Origin: an uncultured Candidatus Binatia bacterium
GTDB lineage: Bacteria; Desulfobacterota; Binatia; UBA9968; JAJDTQ01
DNA length: 64,000 nt
Assembly (NCBI GenBank): GCA_965242525.1
Contig: OZ251459.1
Coordinates: 512,001-576,000 of the forward strand
Reading direction: 5' to 3'
Under the pieces are notes generated by a model. That model did no database searches and was not told the DNA's origin. It saw only the letters and a program-made list of their open reading frames with translations. Both the position numbers and the translations under genes were made by a program. Shown here one piece after another: positions 5,335 through 63,432 of the stretch. Each line of letters starts with the position of its first letter. Positions within the stretch are counted from its first letter, which is position 1.

Positions 5335-6951
5335 ATGTCCGACGAGCGCAGGGCGTTGCGGGAGGCGGTGTCGCGGTTCATGCCGCCCAGGACCGCGGCC
5401 GACTTCTGCGACGACAACGCGCGCCGCGCGGGCGCGAAGGAGGCGCTGGTGGACTCCCGCCGCCGCCTCACCTGGGAGCGGACCGCGGAGTTCTCCGACG
5501 CCCTCGCCCTGGGGCTGCTGGACCTGGGGCTGGAACGCGACTCCCGCGTGCTCATCCAGATGCCCAACTCCGCGGAGCTCTTCCTCGCCCGGCTGGCGTG
5601 CGAGAAGGCGGGGCTGAAGCTGGTCACCGCGGCCCCGAGCCTGCGGCGGGCGGAGCTCGGCCCCATCGTCCGCTTCACCCGCCCCGAGGCCGCCATCGTC
5701 CCCGCCGCGTACCGTGGGTTCGACCACCTGGAGCTGCTGGAGCAGGTCCGCGTGCCCGAGCTGCGCCACGTGCTGGCGGCGTGGGACGAGGTCCCCCGGG
5801 GCTGCCTTTCGCTGGAGCGGGTCCTGTCCGCCGCGGTTTCGGACCACGGCCGGCGGCGCCTGTCCGCCACCCGGTACGGCGTCGAGGACGTGTGCCAACT
5901 GGCCACCACCAGCGGCTCCACCGGCCGGCCCAAGTGCGCCGCGGTGCCCCTCTACACCCGGCTGCTCACCGCCTGGAGCCACCTCCGGCGGTTCCGCGTG
6001 GACGGGGGCGACACCCTGTGCGCGGTCACCGCCATCATCTCCGGCGTCGCCGACGGGTTGATCTACAACGGCGTTTGCCAGGCGGGGGCGCGGGTGGTGC
6101 TCATGGACCGCTTCGACCCGCGCCGGACCTGCGAGACCGTGGCGCGGGAGCGGGTGGACGTGCTCCCGTTGGTCCCCACCATGATCTCCCGGCTGCTGGC
6201 CCTGGACGACCTCGACGGCCGCGACCTGGGTTCCCTGCGCATGGTGGTGAGCCACGGGTCGCTGCTGCCCCACGAGCTGGGGGTCGAGGCCGAGGCGCGG
6301 CTGGGTTGCCGGATCATGCAGGGCTACGGCAGCGTGGACTGCGGCGGCCTGTGCGCCACCTCCTGGGACGACCCCCCCGACGTCCGCATCCGGTCCGTGG
6401 GCCGGCCCCTGGAGGGCAACGAGTTGCGCGTGCTGGACGAGAGCGGCAACCAGGCGCGTCCGGGAGAGCCGGGCCGCCTGTGGGTCCGGGGCCTGCCCTC
6501 GGACGCGCGGTTCTTCGACGCCCCGGAGCTCGACGCCCGGCGGCGGCCCGACGGCTTCCTGGACCTGCAGGAGTGGGGCCGCATGGACCGCGGGGGCAAC
6601 GTCTATCTCATGGGCCGGGACCAGGACCTCATCATCCGCGGCGGACGGAACGTCTTTCCCGCGGACCTGGAGAACCTGCTGCTGCGCTGCCCCGGGGTGA
6701 AGGACGCGGCAGTGGTGGGCTACGCCCACGCGGACCTGGGCGAGGGCATCGCCGCCTGCGTGGTGCCGCAGCAAGGCGCGCGGCCGACCCTGGAGCAGGT
6801 GAGGGAGTTCCTCCGGCAACAGGGGCTGGCCCCGTTCAAGCGCCCCGACCGGCTGGAGTCGATGGACGGGTTCCCCAGGGTCGCGTCGGGAGACAAGGTG
6901 GACAAGCGGGCGCTGCGGGAGCGGGTGGAGGCGCCGAAGGCCGGGGACTGA
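5335..6951 (+). CDS. AMP-binding enzyme (acyl/aryl-CoA ligase-like)
   Basis: TTSGSTGRPK P-loop, QGYGS, GR..DLIIRGGRNVFP, SGDKVDK; AGGAGG SD. Confidence 0.88.
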   Translation: MSDERRALREAVSRFMPPRTAADFCDDNARRAGAKEALVDSRRRLTWERTAEFSDALALGLLDLGLERDSRVLIQMPNSAELFLARLACEKAGLKLVTAAPSLRRAELGPIVRFTRPEAAIVPAAYRGFDHLELLEQVRVPELRHVLAAWDEVPRGCLSLERVLSAAVSDHGRRRLSATRYGVEDVCQLATTSGSTGRPKCAAVPLYTRLLTAWSHLRRFRVDGGDTLCAVTAIISGVADGLIYNGVCQAGARVVLMDRFDPRRTCETVARERVDVLPLVPTMISRLLALDDLDGRDLGSLRMVVSHGSLLPHELGVEAEARLGCRIMQGYGSVDCGGLCATSWDDPPDVRIRSVGRPLEGNELRVLDESGNQARPGEPGRLWVRGLPSDARFFDAPELDARRRPDGFLDLQEWGRMDRGGNVYLMGRDQDLIIRGGRNVFPADLENLLLRCPGVKDAAVVGYAHADLGEGIAACVVPQQGARPTLEQVREFLRQQGLAPFKRPDRLESMDGFPRVASGDKVDKRALRERVEAPKAGD

Positions 6952-6997
6952 AGGGCCGCGGTTCGAGAGGCGGGAACCGCGGCGGAAACCGCACCAG

Positions 6998-7190
6998 GGA
7001 AAACCCTGAACGATCATCCCCGTTCGTCCTGAGCGTAGCGAAGCGAAGTCGAAGGACGCGCTTGTTTGCTCGCAAGGTCTGGATTCCCGCTTTCGCGGGA
7101 ATGACGGGATGGGGAGTGTCGCAACCCACACGAATTCCGGAAGCGCCGCTTTCCCGCAGGTGAGGGACTTCGAACCGGAATGGACCGGGC
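6998..7190. repeat. Composite repeat: family A core + GGATTCCCGCTTTCGCGGGAATGAC palindrome + family B end
   Basis: Direct sequence match to the other copies; lies between convergent genes. Confidence 0.75.
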
Positions 7191-7203
7191 GGGGCGCCGG
7201 GCG

Positions 7204-7398
7204 TCAGCCCTCGTTGACGTGGACGCGGATGGCTCCGTAGGCGCAGTCCCACTGGCAGACGAAGCATCCCTGGCAGTCCTGGGGGTAGGCCATGCGGGCC
7301 TTGCGGTCGGGGTCCAGGCGCAGGACGTCGGTGGGGCAGGTCTCGACGCAGACGCCGCAGCCGGTGCACGCCCGCTCGTTGACTTCAACCCGCGGCAT
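7204..7398 (-). CDS. Dicluster 4Fe-4S ferredoxin (AprB-like)
   Basis: CTGCGVCVETCP and CQGCFVCQWDC. Confidence 0.88.
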   Translation of the reverse strand: MPRVEVNERACTGCGVCVETCPTDVLRLDPDRKARMAYPQDCQGCFVCQWDCAYGAIRVHVNEG

Positions 7399-9115
7399 GG
7401 GACGGCTCCCGGTTGCGGAAGACCAGGTGCAGGTTCCGGGTGGGCCGCACCGGGATGGGGTCGTGCCAGGAGTCGGGCAGGGGCTCGTCCCACAGCTTGA
7501 GGTCCCCGTCCTCGCGCTTGACCACCACCATCCTCACCCAGTCCACGTTGTCGATGACCGGATAGTCCTCGCGGATGAACGCCACGCGGCTTTCCGTCCG
7601 GCGCCGGTAGGCGCGCAAGGTGGCCTCCAGCACCTGCAAGTACTGCTTGAGGCCCCAGGCCTTGGCGAGCTCGTGGGGGTCCCGGGCCATGAGCCGGGGC
7701 GCGTCGTGGGCGCGTATCTCCGCGAGCTCGTCCAGCGCGGCGTCGATGCGGTCGGCGTGGAGCACCAGCCCGACCTTCTCCATGAGCAGCCGTCCGAGGC
7801 GCCGGTGCACGCGGTCGAAAGCCGCTCCGTCCCGTTGCCGGAGGGGCCCATGGATATCTTCCGCCACCCGTCGGAGCTGGTCCGGTTGCGGCGGGACGGG
7901 GTTCTCCGGACGCGGCTCCCGGCCCGCGGCCCGTCCGGTCCAGTCGCCGGTGACCGAGCAGAAGGGGAGGTGGCCGCCCGGCAGCCAGGTCATGTCGGTG
8001 CAGGTGCCCGCGGCGTAGAGCCCCGGCACGGTGGTCTCGCCGCGCTCGTTGACCCGGGCGCCGGCCCCGAAGATGCCGCTGGTGCCCGCCACCTGGTAGG
8101 TATAGGGCACCGGCGTCTCCGTGAGGTCGCCGGCCACCGCCTCCTGGTTCGCCGCCACGATGGGGATCACCCGCCGGATGATCTCCATCCGTTCGGGCGG
8201 CACGTCCCGCAGGTCCATGGCCGGGACCCGGCCCCGTTCCTTCTGGTGGGCGACGGCGAAGTAGAGCAGCGCCCGGCTGGTCATCTCCATGCGCTTGGGG
8301 TCGTAGTCTTCCAGGAACCGGCGGCCGTCCCGGTCCACCCACTTGGCCCCCGAAGGCATCAGCGACTCCAGGCCCGGCGCGGACAGGGCATGGTCGGGGT
8401 TCAGGTTGATGCCCCCCAGCTCCAGCCGCGACAGCTCCGCGCCCGCGCGCATCATCATGGCGATGCCGTCGCCGGAAAGGTCGATGGGCATGTAGCCCAG
8501 GGTGCTTCCGGGCCACGGGTACGGGAACTTGTAGGGGCCGGTGCAGACCACGGTGGCGTGGGCCGCGAACTCGTGGACCTCCCCGGTGCGGGTGTGGAAC
8601 CCCGCGGCGCCCACGACCCGCCCGCGGGTGGGCAGGCGCCCGTCCGACGTGAGCAACTCTGTGAGGGCCACGCGGTTCACCACCTCCACGCCGCTGCCCA
8701 CCACCCCCGAGCGCACCGCCATCATCATCTGCGGGCCGCCTTCGGCCATCCACACGCCGTTGGCGAAGGAACGCCCCGGGGCCCCCATGCGGACGATCTT
8801 CCGGCCCTGCTTGAGCCACTTGACGCCCCAGCCGTCCATGAGCATCACGTGCTCGTGCATCACCGGCAGGGACTTGGCCAGCAGGGGCTGGTTCACCAGC
8901 GGGCCGCCGAAGGCCCGCATCCAGGCGTCCACGTCGTCCCCCGGCATGTACGACGGATAGACCCCCGACGCCAGAGCGCTGCACCCGCTGCGGCCGAAGT
9001 ACGAGCGGTCCACCAGCAGCACCCGCGCCCCGGCCTCCCGCGCCCGGTAGGCCGCAAACGCCCCGGCGATGCCGCCGCCGACCACCAGCACGTCCGTTTC
9101 CAGGCGAACCGCCAT
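7385..9115 (-). CDS. FAD-dependent oxidoreductase, SdhA/FrdA/AprA superfamily
   Basis: DVLVVGGGIAG, GRSGCS, SGDGIAM, TTVPGLYAAG, RTESR..FIREDYP. Confidence 0.88.
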   Translation of the reverse strand: MAVRLETDVLVVGGGIAGAFAAYRAREAGARVLLVDRSYFGRSGCSALASGVYPSYMPGDDVDAWMRAFGGPLVNQPLLAKSLPVMHEHVMLMDGWGVKWLKQGRKIVRMGAPGRSFANGVWMAEGGPQMMMAVRSGVVGSGVEVVNRVALTELLTSDGRLPTRGRVVGAAGFHTRTGEVHEFAAHATVVCTGPYKFPYPWPGSTLGYMPIDLSGDGIAMMMRAGAELSRLELGGINLNPDHALSAPGLESLMPSGAKWVDRDGRRFLEDYDPKRMEMTSRALLYFAVAHQKERGRVPAMDLRDVPPERMEIIRRVIPIVAANQEAVAGDLTETPVPYTYQVAGTSGIFGAGARVNERGETTVPGLYAAGTCTDMTWLPGGHLPFCSVTGDWTGRAAGREPRPENPVPPQPDQLRRVAEDIHGPLRQRDGAAFDRVHRRLGRLLMEKVGLVLHADRIDAALDELAEIRAHDAPRLMARDPHELAKAWGLKQYLQVLEATLRAYRRRTESRVAFIREDYPVIDNVDWVRMVVVKREDGDLKLWDEPLPDSWHDPIPVRPTRNLHLVFRNREPSHAAG

Positions 9116-58424: not shown

Positions 58425-58628
58425 GGGACCTTGGCCGGCTGCGCAGGACCCCCGGAGAGGACCTGTCCGCGGGGCCTCCGGGCGGGAAGTGCGCGAGCGG
58501 CGTCCGGGAGCCGCGTGACGGGGCTTGCATCGAGGTTCCGCTCGCTCCCCCCGAACGGGAGGAGCCTGCACGGGCTGCACCGCCCGGGAACGGCCGGAGC
58601 TTCCGCGAAAGGCCGCGGGAGCTTGCGG

Positions 58629-59348
58629 CTACAGGTGCTCGCCGCCATCGACGTAGATGCACTCGCCCGTGACGAACGGGTTGTCCAGCAGAAACAGCAC
58701 GGCGGCGATCAGGTTATCCGTGTTGCCGGTGCGTTGCAAGGGCAGGGCGGCGCTGCGCCGCTCCAACTCGTCGGCCACTCCTCCCGCGGGCGCCAGTATC
58801 ATGCCGGGACAGACGCCGTTGACCCGGATGGCGGGGCCGAGCTCCCGGGCCGCCATGCGCGTCAGTTCCCACAGCGCCTTCTTGGACAGGGTGTAGGCCG
58901 CGTGCTGCGGCTCCGACTTGCGCACCCGGGTGTCGAGCACGTTGACGATCTGGCCGCGCGCGCAGCCCTCGGCGAACGCCCGGGTGAGGAAGAACGGCGC
59001 CCGGAAGTTGACGTGGAAATGGCGCTCGAACAGGTGGAGGTCGGTGTCCCGGATGCCTCCCCGCTCGAAGACGGAGGCGTTGTTCACCAGCACGTTCAGG
59101 TGCGGGAAGCGTTCCCGGACCCGGGGCGCCAGCGACAGGGTCTCTTCATGGTCGTCCAGGTCGCAGCGGAACAGCCCGCACTTTCCCCCGGCGTCCTCCA
59201 CCTCCCGCGCCGTCCGTTCCGCGTCCTCCTCCGAGTCGAGGTAGTGCAGCGCCACGTCGTAGCCTTCCCGCGCCAGCGCCAGCGCCAGCGCCGCTCCGAT
59301 GCGCCTGGCCCCCCCGGTGACCAGCGCCGCTCCCCTGGGTGCAGCCAT
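58629..59348 (-). CDS. Pteridine reductase-like SDR (FolM/PTR1 type)
   Basis: TGGARRIG (Arg-type GxxxxG variant), NNAS.F, YxxSK. Confidence 0.85.
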   Translation of the reverse strand: MAAPRGAALVTGGARRIGAALALALAREGYDVALHYLDSEEDAERTAREVEDAGGKCGLFRCDLDDHEETLSLAPRVRERFPHLNVLVNNASVFERGGIRDTDLHLFERHFHVNFRAPFFLTRAFAEGCARGQIVNVLDTRVRKSEPQHAAYTLSKKALWELTRMAARELGPAIRVNGVCPGMILAPAGGVADELERRSAALPLQRTGNTDNLIAAVLFLLDNPFVTGECIYVDGGEHL

Positions 59349-59470
59349 GTCCGGCATCATACCGATTTTTCCACGCCCTTTCGATCCGCATCGTCGGTAG
59401 TCGGTGTCGGAGCAACCGGCTTTCTGCAAGCCCCCTGGCAGTCCCCCGGATGTGCTGCGGTGGGTTCAGG

Positions 59471-60924
59471 TCATCGAACGGGCTTGACGCCTCCCTTGCG
59501 ACCCAGGCCATAGCCCACCCTGAAAACGTCTGGGACATTGACCCGACCGTCGTACAGGCGTTGGAAGACCCCCAGGGCTTCGAGGTCCTCACGGATGCCG
59601 TCGGGGCCATGATGGCGGGGGGACAGCTTGACGTGGTGTCGTTGTGCTTCCGCGGCAAGACAGTTGAGAACGCCTTCCGTGTTCCAACGGTCGGCAACGT
59701 CTTCGAATTCACAAGGCACGGTTACGCCGGCAAGGGATTTCAGAACTTGGTTCACCCACGGATAATCCTCTCGAAGCTCTTCGATTCGTGTTCGTGATGC
59801 GGCTTGCACGCCAAATTTGATTGCTTTGGGATGCAACACATGATGGTGGTCGGCGTGCTCGATACGGGTATTTTCCGCAGCCTCCCGCAACGCCGTGAGA
59901 AACGAACGAGGGCTTAGCCTTCCTTGGGTATCGGCCAGGTGCTTGGGGATCCAGGTGTAGGGGAAACCGCGCCTTCGATTCGTTCCCATCCATGGGCCTG
60001 CAACGTCGTGAAACTTCTCGCGCTGGTAATCTTCATCGAGGATCAGGCGCCGCGGGACCGGGTACAGACATCGCTGGCCAACTCGTATCGGCGACCAGTT
60101 CTCTTTCCTCAAAAATTTCCGAAAGACTTCGCCATTCGGTCCATTGGCCGAGTGGTGCCACAGGAGGCCGTAGAGTTCTCGGGCAGGCCAACTCAACTCG
60201 ACGGCCGAAGCAAGGACCTTCGAAGCATCGGGGAAGTCGCCGATCTCGGTCTCGTCGTTCTGGTCGGACCGCAAGAACACTTGATCCGTATCCTCCGATA
60301 GGAGCGCATGTCGATGGCGGTTTGCATCAAGCCGCGAACCAGTTTGTACATCACTCTCCGGTCGTCGGAGCAACGGTCGAGTGCGTCGAACAAAAGCAGA
60401 AAGAACACCCCTTTATGATCGAACTCGTCATCGCGCATGCCGAACAAACGGTCGATCACCTCAGGATGATCGTCCACGTATCCTGTTCGCTTGCTCCAAT
60501 CATCCTGTTTTCGAAAGGGATGGTCGTGCGGTGCGAGCTGCCAAGCCTGTACTGTTCGCCAGATAATCCTCGGCTCAACACCGGCGTGCTGAATGAGGTG
60601 TAGCAACACGTCCTTGCTGGGGTAATGATCGGGTGCTGGTCTTACACCGAATCCTGTTCTCACCTCGGTGTTTTCACCCAACGTAGATAGGTTATTGTAT
60701 AATCCCAACAGTTGGCGAACGCTGGATTGCTGCAGAGCGCTCCACCAGAACGTCTTTCCCGCGCCGCGCATGCCGGTCACCAGCATTGTGTCGGGATCCA
60801 TGGCCTTGAGGTGGGGACTCGGTACGTACACGTGTTCGGGAGGGGGCGGCTCGCCGTAACTCGTCTCTGCCGGTAGTGAAGCGAGCGCTTCCCGTGCTCG
60901 CTGGATGTCTATGGTCCCTGTCAT
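59471..60924 (-). pseudogene. P-loop ATPase (Sll1717-like) with a 1-nt frameshift near 60280
   Basis: Walker A TGMRGAGKT and Walker B LLFDALD in one frame; continuation VFLRSDQ...LSPRSFL...VNVPDVFRVGYGLGRKGG in another; restoring one G gives IKVFLR. Confidence 0.75.
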
Positions 60925-62201
60925 GGCGTGTCTCGGTTGTCGTTGACTTCGCCATCGAACCATTTCAGGAACTCTGCGTATGCCTGGTACACGGCTGCCC
61001 GGTCCAGAAAGCGCAAGGATGTACCGGCGGCGAGCCCGCGGTTCCAGTGGATGGGGATTGGGTGATGGGGGGCTTCTTCGTCGTCCAGCCCGAACGAAAA
61101 TTCATCGCCGGTGTTGGCGGGAGCAATTTCATCGTACAGGTGGTCTCGAAACAGGCTCCATGCCTGTTGCCGGAACCGCTGCAGGTAAAGTTCGGTATCG
61201 AGTTCGGGGGTCAGTGCGGACACGATGAACAGGCGTTCCCTGATGCTCGTCGCCAGGTCGTGATCCCGCCAATGACGGAAGAGGATACCGTAATCGGTCC
61301 AGGTGCTCTCCGAGTCGGCGGCGAAAAGCAGGACCCGTGCTTTGAGGTCGGTGACCGTGGCCGCAGCAATGTCGTGAAGGCCGCTACGGCTCTCCAGCAG
61401 CGCCACTGTGGGTTTGTGGGTGTCTTCGAGTCGGGACAACAGGCCACCAAGGCGCTCGGCCCATGTAGTACCGGCGCCCACATGGACACGCCCCAACTTG
61501 GCAAGATACTCGCCGGGTTCGCTGCCATGAGCCGGCACGACCCGGACGTCGCCTTCCAGTTCTCGTGACCACGATGGATGAGCGGACATCCGTCCGATTA
61601 CCCGTTCACCTTGTCCGACCAGGTCCTCCACGAACCAGTCGGTGACGCCAAACTCCGGCTGTGTTCGCGCATCGAGCATCGCCGACGACAATCCCGGGGA
61701 CTCCAGATCCAGATCGACCACCAGAACCCGTTCACCGCTACGCGCCAAGTGCCACGCAAGAACGGCGGCAGTAGTACTCCGACCCACCCCGCCCTTCACG
61801 GAAAAGAGGGTGTAACGACGCGGACCGTCTTTCGGAGGAGGCGGGCTTACCGTCGACCAGTCGCCGCCGGTCATCAGGCGGTCCACCCAATATACGTTGG
61901 ACTCGATTGTGGAAGCGTCTTCCCGTAGGGTGTTCAGTCGTTCGGAATCCACGAACAGAACGGCGGTTTCTTCAGGGTAGGCATACGCACCCAGTTTTTC
62001 CTGCAGGCGGACTGCAAGACCTCTCACAGCGTTGCGTCGCTCTTCGTCTTCCCGTACTGCCTCCGATACGGCTATACGTAACTTCCCGTACAGGTTCCGT
62101 ACCAGATAGACTTCACCGAGACCGTGTAGTTCCTCCGGTGATCCCTTCAACACGTCCACCACTCGAGAGCGCACGGAGTCAAACGGAACGAATCCGACCA
62201 T
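60921..62201 (-). CDS. ParA/MinD-like ATPase with KGGVGR variant Walker A
   Basis: FSVKGGVGRST, VDLDLESPG, LESRSG; about 125-aa N-terminal extension; stop overlaps the next ATG (ATGA). Confidence 0.85.
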   Translation of the reverse strand: MVGFVPFDSVRSRVVDVLKGSPEELHGLGEVYLVRNLYGKLRIAVSEAVREDEERRNAVRGLAVRLQEKLGAYAYPEETAVLFVDSERLNTLREDASTIESNVYWVDRLMTGGDWSTVSPPPPKDGPRRYTLFSVKGGVGRSTTAAVLAWHLARSGERVLVVDLDLESPGLSSAMLDARTQPEFGVTDWFVEDLVGQGERVIGRMSAHPSWSRELEGDVRVVPAHGSEPGEYLAKLGRVHVGAGTTWAERLGGLLSRLEDTHKPTVALLESRSGLHDIAAATVTDLKARVLLFAADSESTWTDYGILFRHWRDHDLATSIRERLFIVSALTPELDTELYLQRFRQQAWSLFRDHLYDEIAPANTGDEFSFGLDDEEAPHHPIPIHWNRGLAAGTSLRFLDRAAVYQAYAEFLKWFDGEVNDNRDTP

Positions 62202-62202
62202 C

Positions 62203-62292
62203 TCAAGGACCGTCCTCGATTACGAGGTTCACCGTTGCGCGATCCTCCCAGTGACGGCGGTGGGCATCGAAGAAATCAGCGGGGTGCGGCAT
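62203..62292 (-). pseudogene. 29-codon remnant of a small (HEPN-like?) first gene of the operon
   Basis: Hand translation MPHPADFFDAHRRHWEDRATVNLVIEDGP*; GAAGGAA SD; stop 1 nt before the ParA ATG. Confidence 0.5.
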
Positions 62293-62571
62293 TTCCTTCT
62301 CGTATCCCTTCGGTGTCGTCGCTTCCATATGCCGGTTGCCTACGGCTGCGACGAAGCGGACGCCTGTCCGAGGGAGGTTTCGGTCCCGTCCCGGTTCAGG
62401 GAGGCTTCAAGCCTAACGCAGGGACCGCAGGGAAGGCAAGCTCACCGCGGGCCGTGCATCATTCCGGTTCCCGTGGTATAGGTAAGGATCTCCAGGGCGC
62501 CTCGTCCTGGAGGTCTGGTCCGAACGGGGTCGTCGAGCGGGAAGGTCGGCGGTCCATCCATCGAGGGTTCC

Positions 62572-63432
62572 ATGACGGTCGAAAGCGTGACGTTGTTGCA
62601 TCCGGGCAGCATGGGCGCCGCGGTCGGCGCCGCCTTGAGGGGCGTCCGCGTGCTGTGGGTGTCCGACGGGCGCAGTCGGGCGAGCGCGGACAGGGCGCGT
62701 CGGGCCGGGCTGACGGAGGCGGCCACGCTGGCCGAAGCCGTGGGCGCCAGCGACGCGGTCCTTTCCGTGTGCCCGCCCCATGCCGCTGAGGAGGTCGCGC
62801 GGAGCGTGGCCGACCTGGGCTTCGCCGGGCTCTACGTGGACGCCAACGCGGTCTCGCGGGCCACCGCCGAGCGCGTGGGGGCCGCGGTCCGCAAGGCCGG
62901 GGCCGGCTTCGTGGACGGCGGCATCATCGGCCCGCCGGTGGAGCGGCCCGGAACCACGCGCCTCTACCTTTCCGGGGAGCGGGCCGCGGAAGTGGCCCGA
63001 CTGTTCTCCGGCGGTCCCCTGGACGCACGAGTCGTGGGGGCGCAGCCCGGGGCCGCCTCCGCCCTCAAGATGGCTTACGCCGGCTGGACCAAGGGCAGCG
63101 ATGCGCTGATCCTCGCCATCCGGGCGCTGGCGGCCCGGGAAGGCGTGGACGAGGCGCTGCTTGCGGAATGGTCCGAGTCCCGTCCCGACTTGGTGGGTCG
63201 GAGCGCGCGGGCGGCCGCTTCGGCTGCGCCCAAGGGTTGGCGTTACGTGGGCGAAATGGAGGAAGTCGCCGCCAGCTTCGACGCCGCGGGGCTCCCTTCG
63301 GGCTTCCACGAGGCCGCGGCCGACCTCTACCAGCGGCTCGCGCCGTTCAAGGGCCATTCCGGGCCCGAGGTCACCGAAGTCCTCGACACGCTCTGCGGAC
63401 CGACCGGGAAACGTAGCGCCGCCGATGGCTGA
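62572..63432 (+). CDS. NAD(P)-dependent oxidoreductase, 6PGD-like with DUF1932
   Basis: LLHPGSMG, SVCPP, YVDANA, DGGIIGPP, ASALKMAYA. Confidence 0.85.
   Translation: MTVESVTLLHPGSMGAAVGAALRGVRVLWVSDGRSRASADRARRAGLTEAATLAEAVGASDAVLSVCPPHAAEEVARSVADLGFAGLYVDANAVSRATAERVGAAVRKAGAGFVDGGIIGPPVERPGTTRLYLSGERAAEVARLFSGGPLDARVVGAQPGAASALKMAYAGWTKGSDALILAIRALAAREGVDEALLAEWSESRPDLVGRSARAAASAAPKGWRYVGEMEEVAASFDAAGLPSGFHEAAADLYQRLAPFKGHSGPEVTEVLDTLCGPTGKRSAADG

Follow-up and report, generated by a model that had tools for sequence, protein, structure and literature searches.

Does the low-GC, three-gene locus in the genome of an uncultured 'Candidatus Binatia' bacterium encode a working conflict operon that still awaits a name? 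A sequence-only reading of the 64,000-nucleotide stretch analysed here (the window) had proposed so. It saw a small effector gene followed by two ATPase genes, could match them to no named, experimentally described system, and held that a match to a system already named would speak against its proposal. Our analysis gives a different answer. We think, with a probability of about 0.85, that the genes are what pseudogenisation has left of the candidate system called HINPO or PDC-M28: its first gene (A) lost 110 codons in frame and its third gene (C) later lost one base. With A deleted and C frameshifted, only the middle gene (B) can still be made whole. With two of its three genes broken, the window's copy cannot be the working operon that had been supposed.

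Two housekeeping genes enclose the variable site at which the locus lies. The drop in GC noticed from the sequence is real: 0.54-0.635 across about 59400-62400, against 0.66-0.73 on the left and 0.71-0.78 on the right. Coordinates 59471-62292 span the entire operon remnant (Table 1). The tight coupling of the reading frames is also as had been described: on the minus strand, the TGA of the A remnant is followed after 1 nt by the ATG of the 426-aa ORF of gene B, and the TGA of B overlaps the ATG of C as ATGA (60921-60924). No ParB gene adjoins the island, both flanks being ordinary genes, and no defence genes lie beside the window's copy. A search for repeats, direct or inverted, at the borders of the island was negative. 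Upstream of A, a sigma-70 scan of the minus strand gave nothing promoter-like, and a scan for terminators after C was negative too; the counts of both are uninformative for this phylum. In the other genomes of the genus the distance between the same two flanking genes ranges from 95 bp to about 20 kb, and among 28 genomes the island occupies the site between them only in G000 and G023. In G023 this site carries an intact syntenic copy, and the left flank is shared with the window.

Table 1. Coordinates of the features of the locus within the window.
Feature	Position	Strand	Description and basis
Short-chain dehydrogenase gene	58629-59429	-	Left flank of the island
Low-GC accessory island	59430-62570	.	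Between the short-chain dehydrogenase gene and the oxidoreductase gene; GC
Gene C, C-terminal part, frame 2	59471-60280	-	Helical and winged-helix-like; ends in the GYGLGRKGGVKP tail
1-nt deletion in gene C	60279-60281	-	Alignment to G023
Gene C, N-terminal part, frame 1, to the frameshift	60281-60924	-	P-loop GMRGAGKT, Walker B LLLFDALDR
Gene B, intact, 426 aa	60921-62201	-	NF047398, PDC-M28B, alignment to G023
Gene A remnant (HEPN, PA-HEPN1 / PDC-M28A)	62203-62292	-	29 codons and stop; ORF, profile match, alignment to G023
330-bp in-frame deletion junction in gene A	62240-62243	-	blastn, MAFFT, metagenome contigs
Oxidoreductase gene	62572-63432	+	Right flank of the island

Gene B joins an N-terminal domain of about 126 aa to a ParA/SIMIBI ATPase domain. 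The sequence-only description of a ParA-like protein with an Arg substitution in Walker A, a long N-terminal domain and no adjacent parB is borne out. B reads KGGVGRS, with Arg at the position of the Walker A Lys, and carries ESPG after DLD (DLDLESPG). The PDC-M28B profile matches it with 454.8 bits over positions 3-434 of 438, and residues G137, G138, G140, R141, P169 and G170 are invariant across 60 aligned B sequences. It shares 86% amino acid identity with its G023 counterpart, with a dN/dS of 0.23. A profile search of PDB sequences with B returned matches around the P-loop only (ArsA/Get3, Soj, Mrp, MinD, BcsQ). The N-terminal domain is conserved in the B alignment and no DxD pair is visible there. 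In hhalign, its profile scored a probability of 0.6% against a minimal PF01909 profile built from 20 relatives' proteins, and a protein-atlas search with residues 1-126 gave no usable match.

In gene C, the P-loop GMRGAGKT seen by the sequence-only reading is present and the C-terminal end of the product does read ...PDVFRVGYGLGRKGGVKP; the single ORF assumed there does not exist, a frameshift having been overlooked. The gene is split into overlapping frames at 60193-60924 (243 aa) and 59471-60373 (300 aa), the first of which continues out of frame past the lesion to a stop at 60193. The two halves match positions 2-213 (189.8 bits) and 212-479 (335.9 bits) of the 480-position PDC-M28C profile. 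At the lesion, the coding strand reads AAGGTG in the homologues and AAGTG in the window, and both halves share one frame in the intact homologues of G023, G012 and G009. A profile search of the window's own genome, which is 98.96% complete, recovered the N-terminal part (profile 3-214, 301 bits) and no second gene C.

The G023 homologue of C was modelled by AF2 with a pLDDT of 92.0, and Foldseek aligned this model best with Orc1/Cdc6 (E about 3e-5), BrxC (2e-4), 2qen and CED-4, and also with NRC chains. Pfam gave weak AAA_16 and NPHP3_N matches to C, none above threshold, and a profile search of PDB sequences with C found nothing below E 0.3. The NCBIfam profile NF047389 (P-loop ATPase, Sll1717 family; cut-off 75 bits) scored the halves of the window's C at 21 and 26.3 bits and the intact homologues at 57.8, 64.8 and 47.9 bits (E 1e-12 to 8e-18). 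Judged by these scores, the C-type proteins are relatives of the Sll1717 family and not members of it.

The 29-codon ORF at the head of the operon had been suspected to be a small HEPN-like gene collapsed by an in-frame deletion, and both parts of this suspicion hold. Using blastn and MAFFT alignment against the intact G023 copy, by which both lesions were mapped, we found 332 bp of G023 swapped for 2 bp in the window, a net loss of 330 bp that takes the gene from 139 to 29 codons. The blastn blocks pair window 59395-62240 with 5400-8245 of locus L019, and window 62243-62446 with 8578-8781. What survives of the gene is its beginning, from the native start to about codon 17, and its final ~10 codons with the native stop; an upstream ATG at 62328 would extend the small ORF to 41 codons. 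Because only the gene ends survive, its match to the PDC-M28A profile reaches just E=0.017 (13.6 bits, positions 3-17 of 138). The search of the window's own genome for a second gene A gave profile positions 1-18 only, at window 62239-62292.

The 139-aa orthologue in G023 tells what was lost. From its AF2 model (pLDDT 86.8), the full-length product is predicted to have a HEPN fold: HEPN domains take the first six places among its VIA matches, at Z of 10.7-12.8 in a tool which warns that chance helical-bundle matches can reach about 13. Foldseek E-values for the model are weak (0.07-0.4). Pfam gave nothing above threshold for A, with weak HEPN_AbiV matches in 18 of 41 family members, and a profile search of PDB sequences returned one chance cyclophilin match (E 0.14). 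R105 is invariant in all 187 A sequences; a His stands at +6 from it in 115 of the 187 and is replaced by Pro in G023. H67 is also invariant, elsewhere in the protein from the Rx4-6H site. As the canonical HEPN Rx4-6H motif is incomplete in A, RNase activity is uncertain.

The order of the two lesions is given by metagenome contigs. The contigs of runs X1 and X10 pass gap-free through the deletion junction in gene A, and the X1 contig carries one extra base after 60279 that restores the frame of gene C; since contigs of another study thus have the HEPN deletion without the frameshift, the deletion came first. X10 does not cover the frameshift site, and X11 has uncovered parts of the stretch. 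The X1 population is ~97% identical to the window and has a gene B without indel. Its gene C and its A junction lie on two separate contigs, with depths of 14.2 and 12.3; that both belong to one strain is assumed. Over 59400-61638, a 6967-bp contig of run X7 (word depth 227) matches the window exactly, gap-free and with the frameshift included; X7 may be the sample behind the assembly, and is then no independent proof of the frameshift. Two 'joints' seen in X7 trace back to a 12.9-kb contig with a match of only 48 bases, and were treated as unrelated sequence. The window's lineage can no longer produce a complete C, and a related population with a whole C holds an A-less B-C pair.

In other genomes the set of three genes is strongly conserved. 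All three are open in 64 of 80 A-anchored loci, with 4-nt overlaps between A and B in 55/64 and between B and C in 40/60; in four of the 80 (L054, L059, L060 and L067) B and C are fused in frame. The expectation that a small gene is conserved before such ATPase pairs is confirmed by the B-anchored loci, where A is complete in 65 of the 73 that could be evaluated, and C is complete in 61 of 64; B-C pairs without A make up 3 of the 73. Most of the collected relatives come from metagenome-assembled genomes, of Vicinamibacterales, Binatia, Latescibacterota, Longimicrobiales and Proteobacteria. Within the genus the system is patchy, occurring in 4 of the 28 genomes and at three different sites. G023 has a second, divergent copy, which adjoins a tyrosine-recombinase-like ORF. 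The idea that homologous loci sit near defence genes holds in part: a minority lie within DISARM-type or other modification-based defence loci, some being flanked by DrmMI/DrmA or DUF1156_MTase/PLD_Helicase genes, while most immediate neighbours of the relatives' systems have no PADLOC match at 1e-10. B relatives occur at three loci only in IMG/VR viral contigs, which gives no sign of a typically phage-borne system.

How the two lesions are to be read depends first on whether the one in C is genuine. A sequencing or assembly error, leaving C intact in the strain and A still deleted, is highly unlikely in our judgement. Such an error would concern a single base in a GG dinucleotide of a genome that, judged from its relatives, is metagenome-assembled, and the base is present in the ~97%-identical X1 population; against this, GG is no long homopolymer and the independently built X7 contig shows the same sequence without a gap, with the reservation about its source given above. 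That the missing nucleotide marks a programmed -1 ribosomal frameshift yielding full-length C is vanishingly improbable. In its favour, the two frames share about 180 nt, with their junction immediately behind ...CGGATCAAG. The proposal was rejected on the continuity of C in G023, G012, G009 and all 61 aligned C sequences, and is further disfavoured by the extra base in X1 and by the site itself, where no X XXY YYZ slippery heptamer is evident by eye.

If the frameshift is real, it could be very recent and strain-specific, and the B-C pair could have remained the primary interference module by itself after the loss of the HEPN gene; being in frame, the deletion would have preserved the translational coupling that drives B-C expression. 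We regard this as unlikely. It is consistent with a deletion that kept the start and stop of A and the stop-1 nt-ATG junction, with the state of X1 (A deleted, C base restored, B without indel), with the existence of A-less pairs elsewhere and with the preprint naming HINPO, which in the text available proposes the HEPN protein merely as a 'backup effector' (bioRxiv 10.64898/2026.10.19.760177). The listed differences between X1 and the window in C, 25 synonymous against 15 nonsynonymous, suggest purifying selection, but only these 40 of the 113 differences could be scored. The dN/dS of B and C against G023 (0.20-0.34) is in the range of the flanking genes (0.29-0.33), but most of that divergence is probably older than the deletion. 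Moreover, the link of the two X1 contigs to a single strain is assumed and recombination could have spread the deletion, the loss rates of A and C do not differ significantly (A broken or absent in 8/73 loci, C in 3/64; Fisher p=0.22), and with C now broken here the proposal describes the recent past at best. A more general form of the proposal, which we likewise regard as unlikely, makes the ParA-like and ORC/Cdc6-like proteins the functional core of HINPO and the HEPN protein dispensable; purifying selection would then have maintained the pair, in at least one related population, until the lesion in C arose in this strain. If true, HINPO would interfere mainly via ATP-driven ParA assembly on ORC-sensed DNA and not via RNA cleavage. 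A different view of the whole family, as a toxin-antitoxin or addiction-type module that stabilises mobile islands, with the HEPN toxin neutralised by B and/or C, seems to us distinctly unlikely. HEPN proteins are the toxins of HEPN-MNT pairs, members of which (8xdj, 7ae2, 5yep) are among the structural matches of A; the preprint places the N-terminal domain of its ParA in the nucleotidyltransferase superfamily, whose fold MNT antitoxins have; and the patchy distribution and the recombinase-like neighbour in G023 would suit such a module. The same preprint calls the domain catalytically inactive, the B N-terminal domain lacks a DxD pair, and the loci between DrmMI/DrmA or DUF1156_MTase/PLD_Helicase genes fit defence. 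The observed order of loss does not discriminate here, since losing A first would be the safe order for a toxin curbed by B or C.

A pseudogenised HINPO / PDC-M28 copy is thus the reading that we prefer. An intact system would consist of three translationally coupled genes, encoding a ~139-aa HEPN protein (A), a ParA/SIMIBI ATPase (B) and an ORC/Cdc6-STAND-like AAA+ protein (C). Following the published proposal, as far as the available text of the preprint sets it out, C would sense invader DNA or another infection cue and nucleate an assembly of B that depends on ATP, while dormancy or death would be caused by the HEPN protein as an RNA-targeting effector. The 'dual-NTPase-regulated toxin' of the sequence-only reading is likewise to be taken as a model. 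No new kind of system is found here, the 'unnamed' operon being the HINPO / PDC-M28 candidate. The domain readings, HEPN for A and ORC/Cdc6-like for C, were reached independently of the preprint. What we add are figures on the tightness of the three-gene association and a natural decay series, HEPN first and ORC-like gene second; this order and the in-frame nature of the first deletion hint at which parts of HINPO are essential.

Among known families and systems, B belongs to the NCBIfam family NF047398 ('KGGVGR-motif variant AAA ATPase'; 163.9 bits, cut-off 90). The locus recalls HEPN-MNT (HepT/MntA, type VII) in having a small HEPN-fold protein beside a reported nucleotidyltransferase-fold domain, and the A model matches 8xdj (Z 8.9), 7ae2 (7.8), 5yep (7.6) and the AbiV structure 9bj5 (6.6). 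It differs in that the best matches of A are classical small HEPN domains (1ufb, 2hsb, 1wol, sacsin), family A lacks the RX4HXY motif, the nucleotidyltransferase-like domain is, in the available preprint text, inactive and fused to a ParA ATPase, and a third, AAA+ gene is obligatory in the window's family. The DefensePredictor preprint, in the text available, left out PDC systems because they lacked validation, and the HEPN systems that it describes are built differently. As for STAND/Avs-type and ORC/Cdc6-like ATPases such as BrxC of BREX, the predicted C structure resembles Orc1/Cdc6, BrxC, CED-4 and NRC, but C is short (~485 aa), has no repeat-type sensor domain or fused effector and is paired with a separate ParA-like partner.

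The closest counterparts are PDC-M28 and HINPO, so that the failure to match a named system does not stand. By profile, the locus matches the PADLOC candidate PDC-M28 in all three genes, very strongly in B and C, in one co-directional cluster; a strict PADLOC run on the window would probably not call a complete system. PADLOC-DB v2 holds PDC-M28 (A, B, C), in the material available, as profiles without a mechanism or domain reading. HINPO was named by Li, Burroughs & Aravind (bioRxiv 10.64898/2026.10.19.760177, 22 Oct 2026). In the available text of that preprint, it comprises an upstream, previously uncharacterised HEPN gene (PA-HEPN1), a ConB2-clade ParA in which Arg replaces the Walker A Lys, a PG motif follows sensor-1 and a catalytically inactive Pol-beta-like nucleotidyltransferase forms the N-terminal domain, and a downstream ORC-CDC6/STAND AAA+ gene, with occasional ParA-ORC fusions and an enrichment in multicellular bacteria. 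Both descriptions, as far as these sources go, are computational and present a candidate, neither name being based on experiment, and our literature search found no experiments on any family member. We infer that the locus is HINPO from the preprint's text, and not from its accession lists. Gene order and parts are the same, KGGVGR and ESPG in the window's B corresponding to the Arg substitution and the PG motif; both ParA proteins carry an extra N-terminal domain, which in B may be the nucleotidyltransferase that the preprint describes. The upstream HEPN gene is present in the family and in the ancestral locus, with a 29-codon remnant in the window; and the ORC-like gene and the fusions agree with the fold predicted for the G023 C protein and with the four fused loci. 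The window's copy differs from HINPO as described in being broken, with A shortened and C present but frameshifted, and it should be annotated as one intact gene and two pseudogenes rather than as a defence system.

The locus at 59471-62292 of the window is a decayed member of a family known from computation alone, in which a HEPN gene (A), a KGGVGR ParA-like ATPase gene (B) and an ORC/Cdc6-like AAA+ ATPase gene (C) follow one another. A sequence-only reading had proposed an unnamed three-gene conflict operon. We judge the conflict-system character to be right. The system does have names, as it matches the PADLOC candidate defence system PDC-M28 and an architecture published as HINPO. B matches PADLOC-DB profile PDC-M28B over positions 3-434 of 438 (454.8 bits), and the A remnant matches positions 3-17 of the 138 positions of PDC-M28A (E=0.017). 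C is present as two ORFs, both matching PDC-M28C (243-aa ORF, positions 2-213, 189.8 bits; 300-aa ORF, positions 212-479, 335.9 bits). B also scores 163.9 bits, over residues 127-312, against NCBIfam NF047398 'KGGVGR-motif variant AAA ATPase' (cut-off 90), and it is the only KGGVGR protein above that cut-off in its own genome; ParA, MinD, BcsQ and ArsA families give short P-loop matches only. The name PDC-M28 is absent from the main text of the PADLOC candidate-system paper.

Features of the window locus and of the second copy in the same-genus genome G023
Feature	Position	Strand	Remarks
Short-chain dehydrogenase gene	window 58629-59429	minus	left flank of island
C, second frame, 300-aa ORF	window 59471-60373	minus	frame differs from that of the 243-aa ORF
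C, first frame, 243-aa ORF	window, down to 60193	minus	opened by ATGA overlap with B at 60921-60924
B, 426-aa ORF	window 60921-62201	minus	starts after the small ORF's TGA plus one nucleotide
A remnant, small ORF, 29 codons	window 62203-62292	minus	
Oxidoreductase gene	window 62572-63432	plus	right flank of island
G023 second copy, C-type gene	L022 5127-6647	minus	same ...RRKGGVK tail
G023 second copy, KGGVGR ParA-like gene	L022 6644-8041	minus	about 30% identity to window's B
G023 second copy, HEPN-like ORF, 99 aa	L022 7972-8271	minus	
ORF adjoining G023 second copy, 401 aa	L022 3880-5085	plus	tyrosine-recombinase-like by eye

The low-GC island between housekeeping genes (0.54-0.635, against about 0.67-0.78 around it) and the tight coupling of its ORFs were correctly described from the sequence. 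The small ORF would reach 41 codons from an alternative upstream ATG at 62328. The second ATPase had been taken for one gene and the frameshift missed: the 243-aa and 300-aa ORFs are two frames of a single broken C. Full-length PDC-M28B matches occur in four of 61 related genomes, all of one genus: the window's own genome, G023, G012 and G009. At the window's site, G023 carries the system with every gene intact (A of 139-151 aa, according to which start is used; B of 425 aa; C of 486 aa), and the left side there likewise has the dehydrogenase and folB/folK genes. By blastn, window 59395-62240 is 87.5% identical to G023, after which 332 bp of G023 stand opposite 2 bp of the window. Relative to G023, A carries a net in-frame deletion of 330 bp, or 110 codons, as had been supposed for a collapsed HEPN gene; in the alignment it retains its start with about 17 codons of the N-terminus, and its stop with about 10 of the C-terminus. 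C has one base fewer where G023 reads AAGGTG, and its halves are in frame with each other in G023, G012 and G009. With A mostly deleted, C frameshifted and no second copy of either found by profile search in the genome (98.96% complete), the window does not hold the working three-gene system first proposed.

Both lesions were followed in Logan contigs of four public runs over window 59400-62500. In run X7, a 6967-bp contig (word depth 227) matches the window without a difference over 59400-61638, frameshift included; this run, in which 97% of the sampled words occur, is possibly the sample behind the assembly and hence not independent of it. A contig of X1, a run of another study labelled as sponge metagenome, is about 97% identical over 59458-61635 (72 differences), and its sole indel, one base added after 60279, restores the frame of C. 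The deletion junction of A is spanned gap-free by contigs of X1 (61613-62500) and X10 (61706-62497), the X1 contigs over C and over the junction being placed in one strain by similar depth only. On these contigs the HEPN deletion is common to several populations and the C frameshift is limited to the window's lineage, so the loss of A preceded that of C. Within C, 25 of the 40 differences listed between X1 and the window (of 113 in all) are synonymous and 15 are not, and dN/dS against G023 is 0.23 for B, 0.20 and 0.34 for the C halves, and 0.29 and 0.33 for the flanking genes; together these values suggest that C was under constraint until recently. How A and C decayed, and in which order, is compatible with, though no proof of, a ParA-like and ORC-like pair acting without the HEPN protein, and it is the one lead worth following here.

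Across the genus the distance between the flanking dehydrogenase and oxidoreductase genes ranges from 95 bp to about 20 kb, and among 28 genomes only the window's genome and G023 carry the system between them; G012 and G009 have it at other sites. By this variable spacing and patchy presence, the system is an accessory cassette and its site a variable one. A repeat search found no repeats bounding the island. Among 27 genomes of the genus, the gap matching window 59430-62570 measures 95 bp in G002, about 270 bp in G011, 0.4-1.8 kb in many and 6.8-20 kb in G016 and G025, with the two genes inverted relative to each other in several. In G023, about 2.4 kb beyond the window's content lies between A and the right flank (L019:8782-11144), including a 512-aa ORF whose N-terminus resembles that of a lipoprotein and which has no evident family; conversely, about 172 bp between the folB-like and dehydrogenase genes of the window (58439-58610) are missing in G023. 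Between the window (59471-62201) and G023, synonymous sites have diverged more in the genes of the island (dS 0.29-0.42) than in those flanking it (0.17), so the history of the cassette may be partly separate from that of its flanks, e.g. via recombination.

A conserved small gene does stand upstream of such ATPase pairs, contrary to one of the outcomes named as refuting the first reading, and the triad is real. Relatives were collected by A (one genome per species; best 80 of 188) and by B (best 80 of 527 from metagenome contigs, plus three viral contigs). The best 80 loci collected by A come from Binatia, Vicinamibacterales and other Acidobacteriota, Latescibacterota, Longimicrobiales, Palauibacter, Alpha- and Gammaproteobacteria, Spirochaetia, Dehalococcoidia, Magnetococcus and others. 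A, B and C are in order in 66 of these 80, or 64 fully open triads once two with internal stops (L057 in A, L064 in B) are dropped; among the rest, five run off their contigs and the remaining ones show visible decay. With start codons chosen heuristically by us, 4-nt overlaps join A to B at 55/64 loci and B to C at 40/60, and B and C share one frame in L054, L059, L060 and L067 (proteins of 911-941 aa). At the loci collected by B, A lies directly upstream complete in 65 of 73 evaluable cases (partial in 5, absent in 3) and C is complete in 61 of 64 (partial in 2, absent in 1); the loss rates of A (8/73) and C (3/64) do not differ significantly (p=0.22).

Among 66 relatives, the nearest neighbours include DrmMI (3/56), DUF1156_MTase (2/56) and PDC-M50A (at least 1) upstream, and DrmA and PLD_Helicase (3/59 each) downstream. 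In L092 and L101 the triad has DUF1156_MTase on one side and PLD_Helicase on the other; in L094 PLD_Helicase follows it, and in L055 DrmMI is upstream. Most nearest neighbours have no PADLOC match at 1e-10, and no defence genes lie beside the window's own copy. These counts, taken without background control, are consistent with the embedding origin of PDC-M28 and are not a measure of enrichment.

Erosion of the system is common in these uncultured lineages. Decayed copies occur in genomes (L053, L061, L064, L079, L082, L093, L095) and metagenomes (L112, L119, L125, L164, L169, L176): L053 has B interrupted by about 1.3 kb and L064 a TAG within B, L082 and L093 have a truncated A, and in L061, L079, L095 and L125 only part of C or none of it is present. 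The A-B unit is in tandem at some loci (L069:6750-12635, L068, L070); L069 has three B and two A matches with no C within reach, and L070 a second, partial unit upstream of a complete triad. G023 also has a second, divergent triad on the minus strand (L022:5127-8271, from G023 C1:489000-503000). In all four runs, summed contig depth peaks at window 60648-60855 (P-loop of C) and 61584-61687 (DLDLESPG of B); the peaks are built from short pieces of other contigs, which points to many related systems in the same communities.

The A family comprises 376 protein clusters at E<=0.001, typically of about 140 aa and with no Pfam domain on record. For an AF2 model of the G023 protein (41-sequence alignment, pLDDT 86.8), the best Foldseek matches in the PDB are HEPN proteins (1o3u, 2q00, 4nqf, 1wol, 1ufb, 2hsb; probability near 1, E 0.07-0.4). 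VIA-align against 48,161 chains ranks six HEPN structures first (1ufb Z 12.8, rmsd 2.6 over 115 residues; 2hsb 12.8; 1wol 12.4; sacsin HEPN 12.1; 4nqf 11.9; 2jpu 10.7), followed by Roquin, an AMPylated HEPN toxin, Csm6, AbiA, HepT and AbiV, although helical bundles may reach comparable Z by chance. Pfam HEPN_AbiV matches 18 of the 41 members weakly (best E 0.0024, none above threshold). The uniform identity of the top structural matches, with the weak Pfam ones, makes the case for A as HEPN. D17, E39, K43, H67, W72, F97, W100 and R105 are invariant among 187 distinct sequences; the His expected 4-6 residues after R105 occurs in 115 of them, G023 having Pro, so that nuclease activity is plausible but not assured.

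The KGGVGR Arg never varies among 60 homologues of B, nor do P and G in the ESPG after DLD. Ahead of its P-loop, B has an N-terminal domain of about 126 residues that is likewise conserved. The model of the G023 C protein (61 sequences; pLDDT 92.0, pTM 0.91) best matches archaeal Orc1/Cdc6 (1w5t, 1fnn; E about 3-4e-5) and BREX BrxC (2e-4), then Pyrococcus ATPase 2qen, CED-4 and plant NRC chains, with ten matches at E<=0.001 overall. Pfam AAA_16 and NPHP3_N match C weakly, and the Sll1717 family NF047389 gives 47.9-64.8 bits, below its 75-bit cut-off.

HINPO was described computationally (Li, Burroughs & Aravind, bioRxiv 10.64898/2026.10.19.760177, 22 Oct 2026), and no experiments on the family were found in the literature accessible to us. 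According to the preprint, its ParA, of the ConB2 clade (Arg in place of the second Walker A Lys, PG motif after sensor-1), has a rapidly evolving, catalytically inactive N-terminal nucleotidyltransferase domain of Pol-beta type; the upstream gene encodes a previously uncharacterised HEPN, PA-HEPN1, and the downstream one an ORC-CDC6/STAND AAA+ protein at times fused to ParA. In the model proposed by its authors, invader DNA is sensed by the ORC-like protein, which directs ParA multimerisation; HEPN is a backup effector leading to death or dormancy, and the NTase-like domain possibly senses nucleotides. In our hands, the N-terminal domain of B reached an hhalign probability of 0.6% against nucleotidyltransferase (minimal PF01909 profile), and a protein Atlas search with residues 1-126 gave no usable match. 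Our analysis arrives independently at HEPN for A and ORC/Cdc6 for C, as well as at the Arg and PG features and the ParA-ORC fusions.
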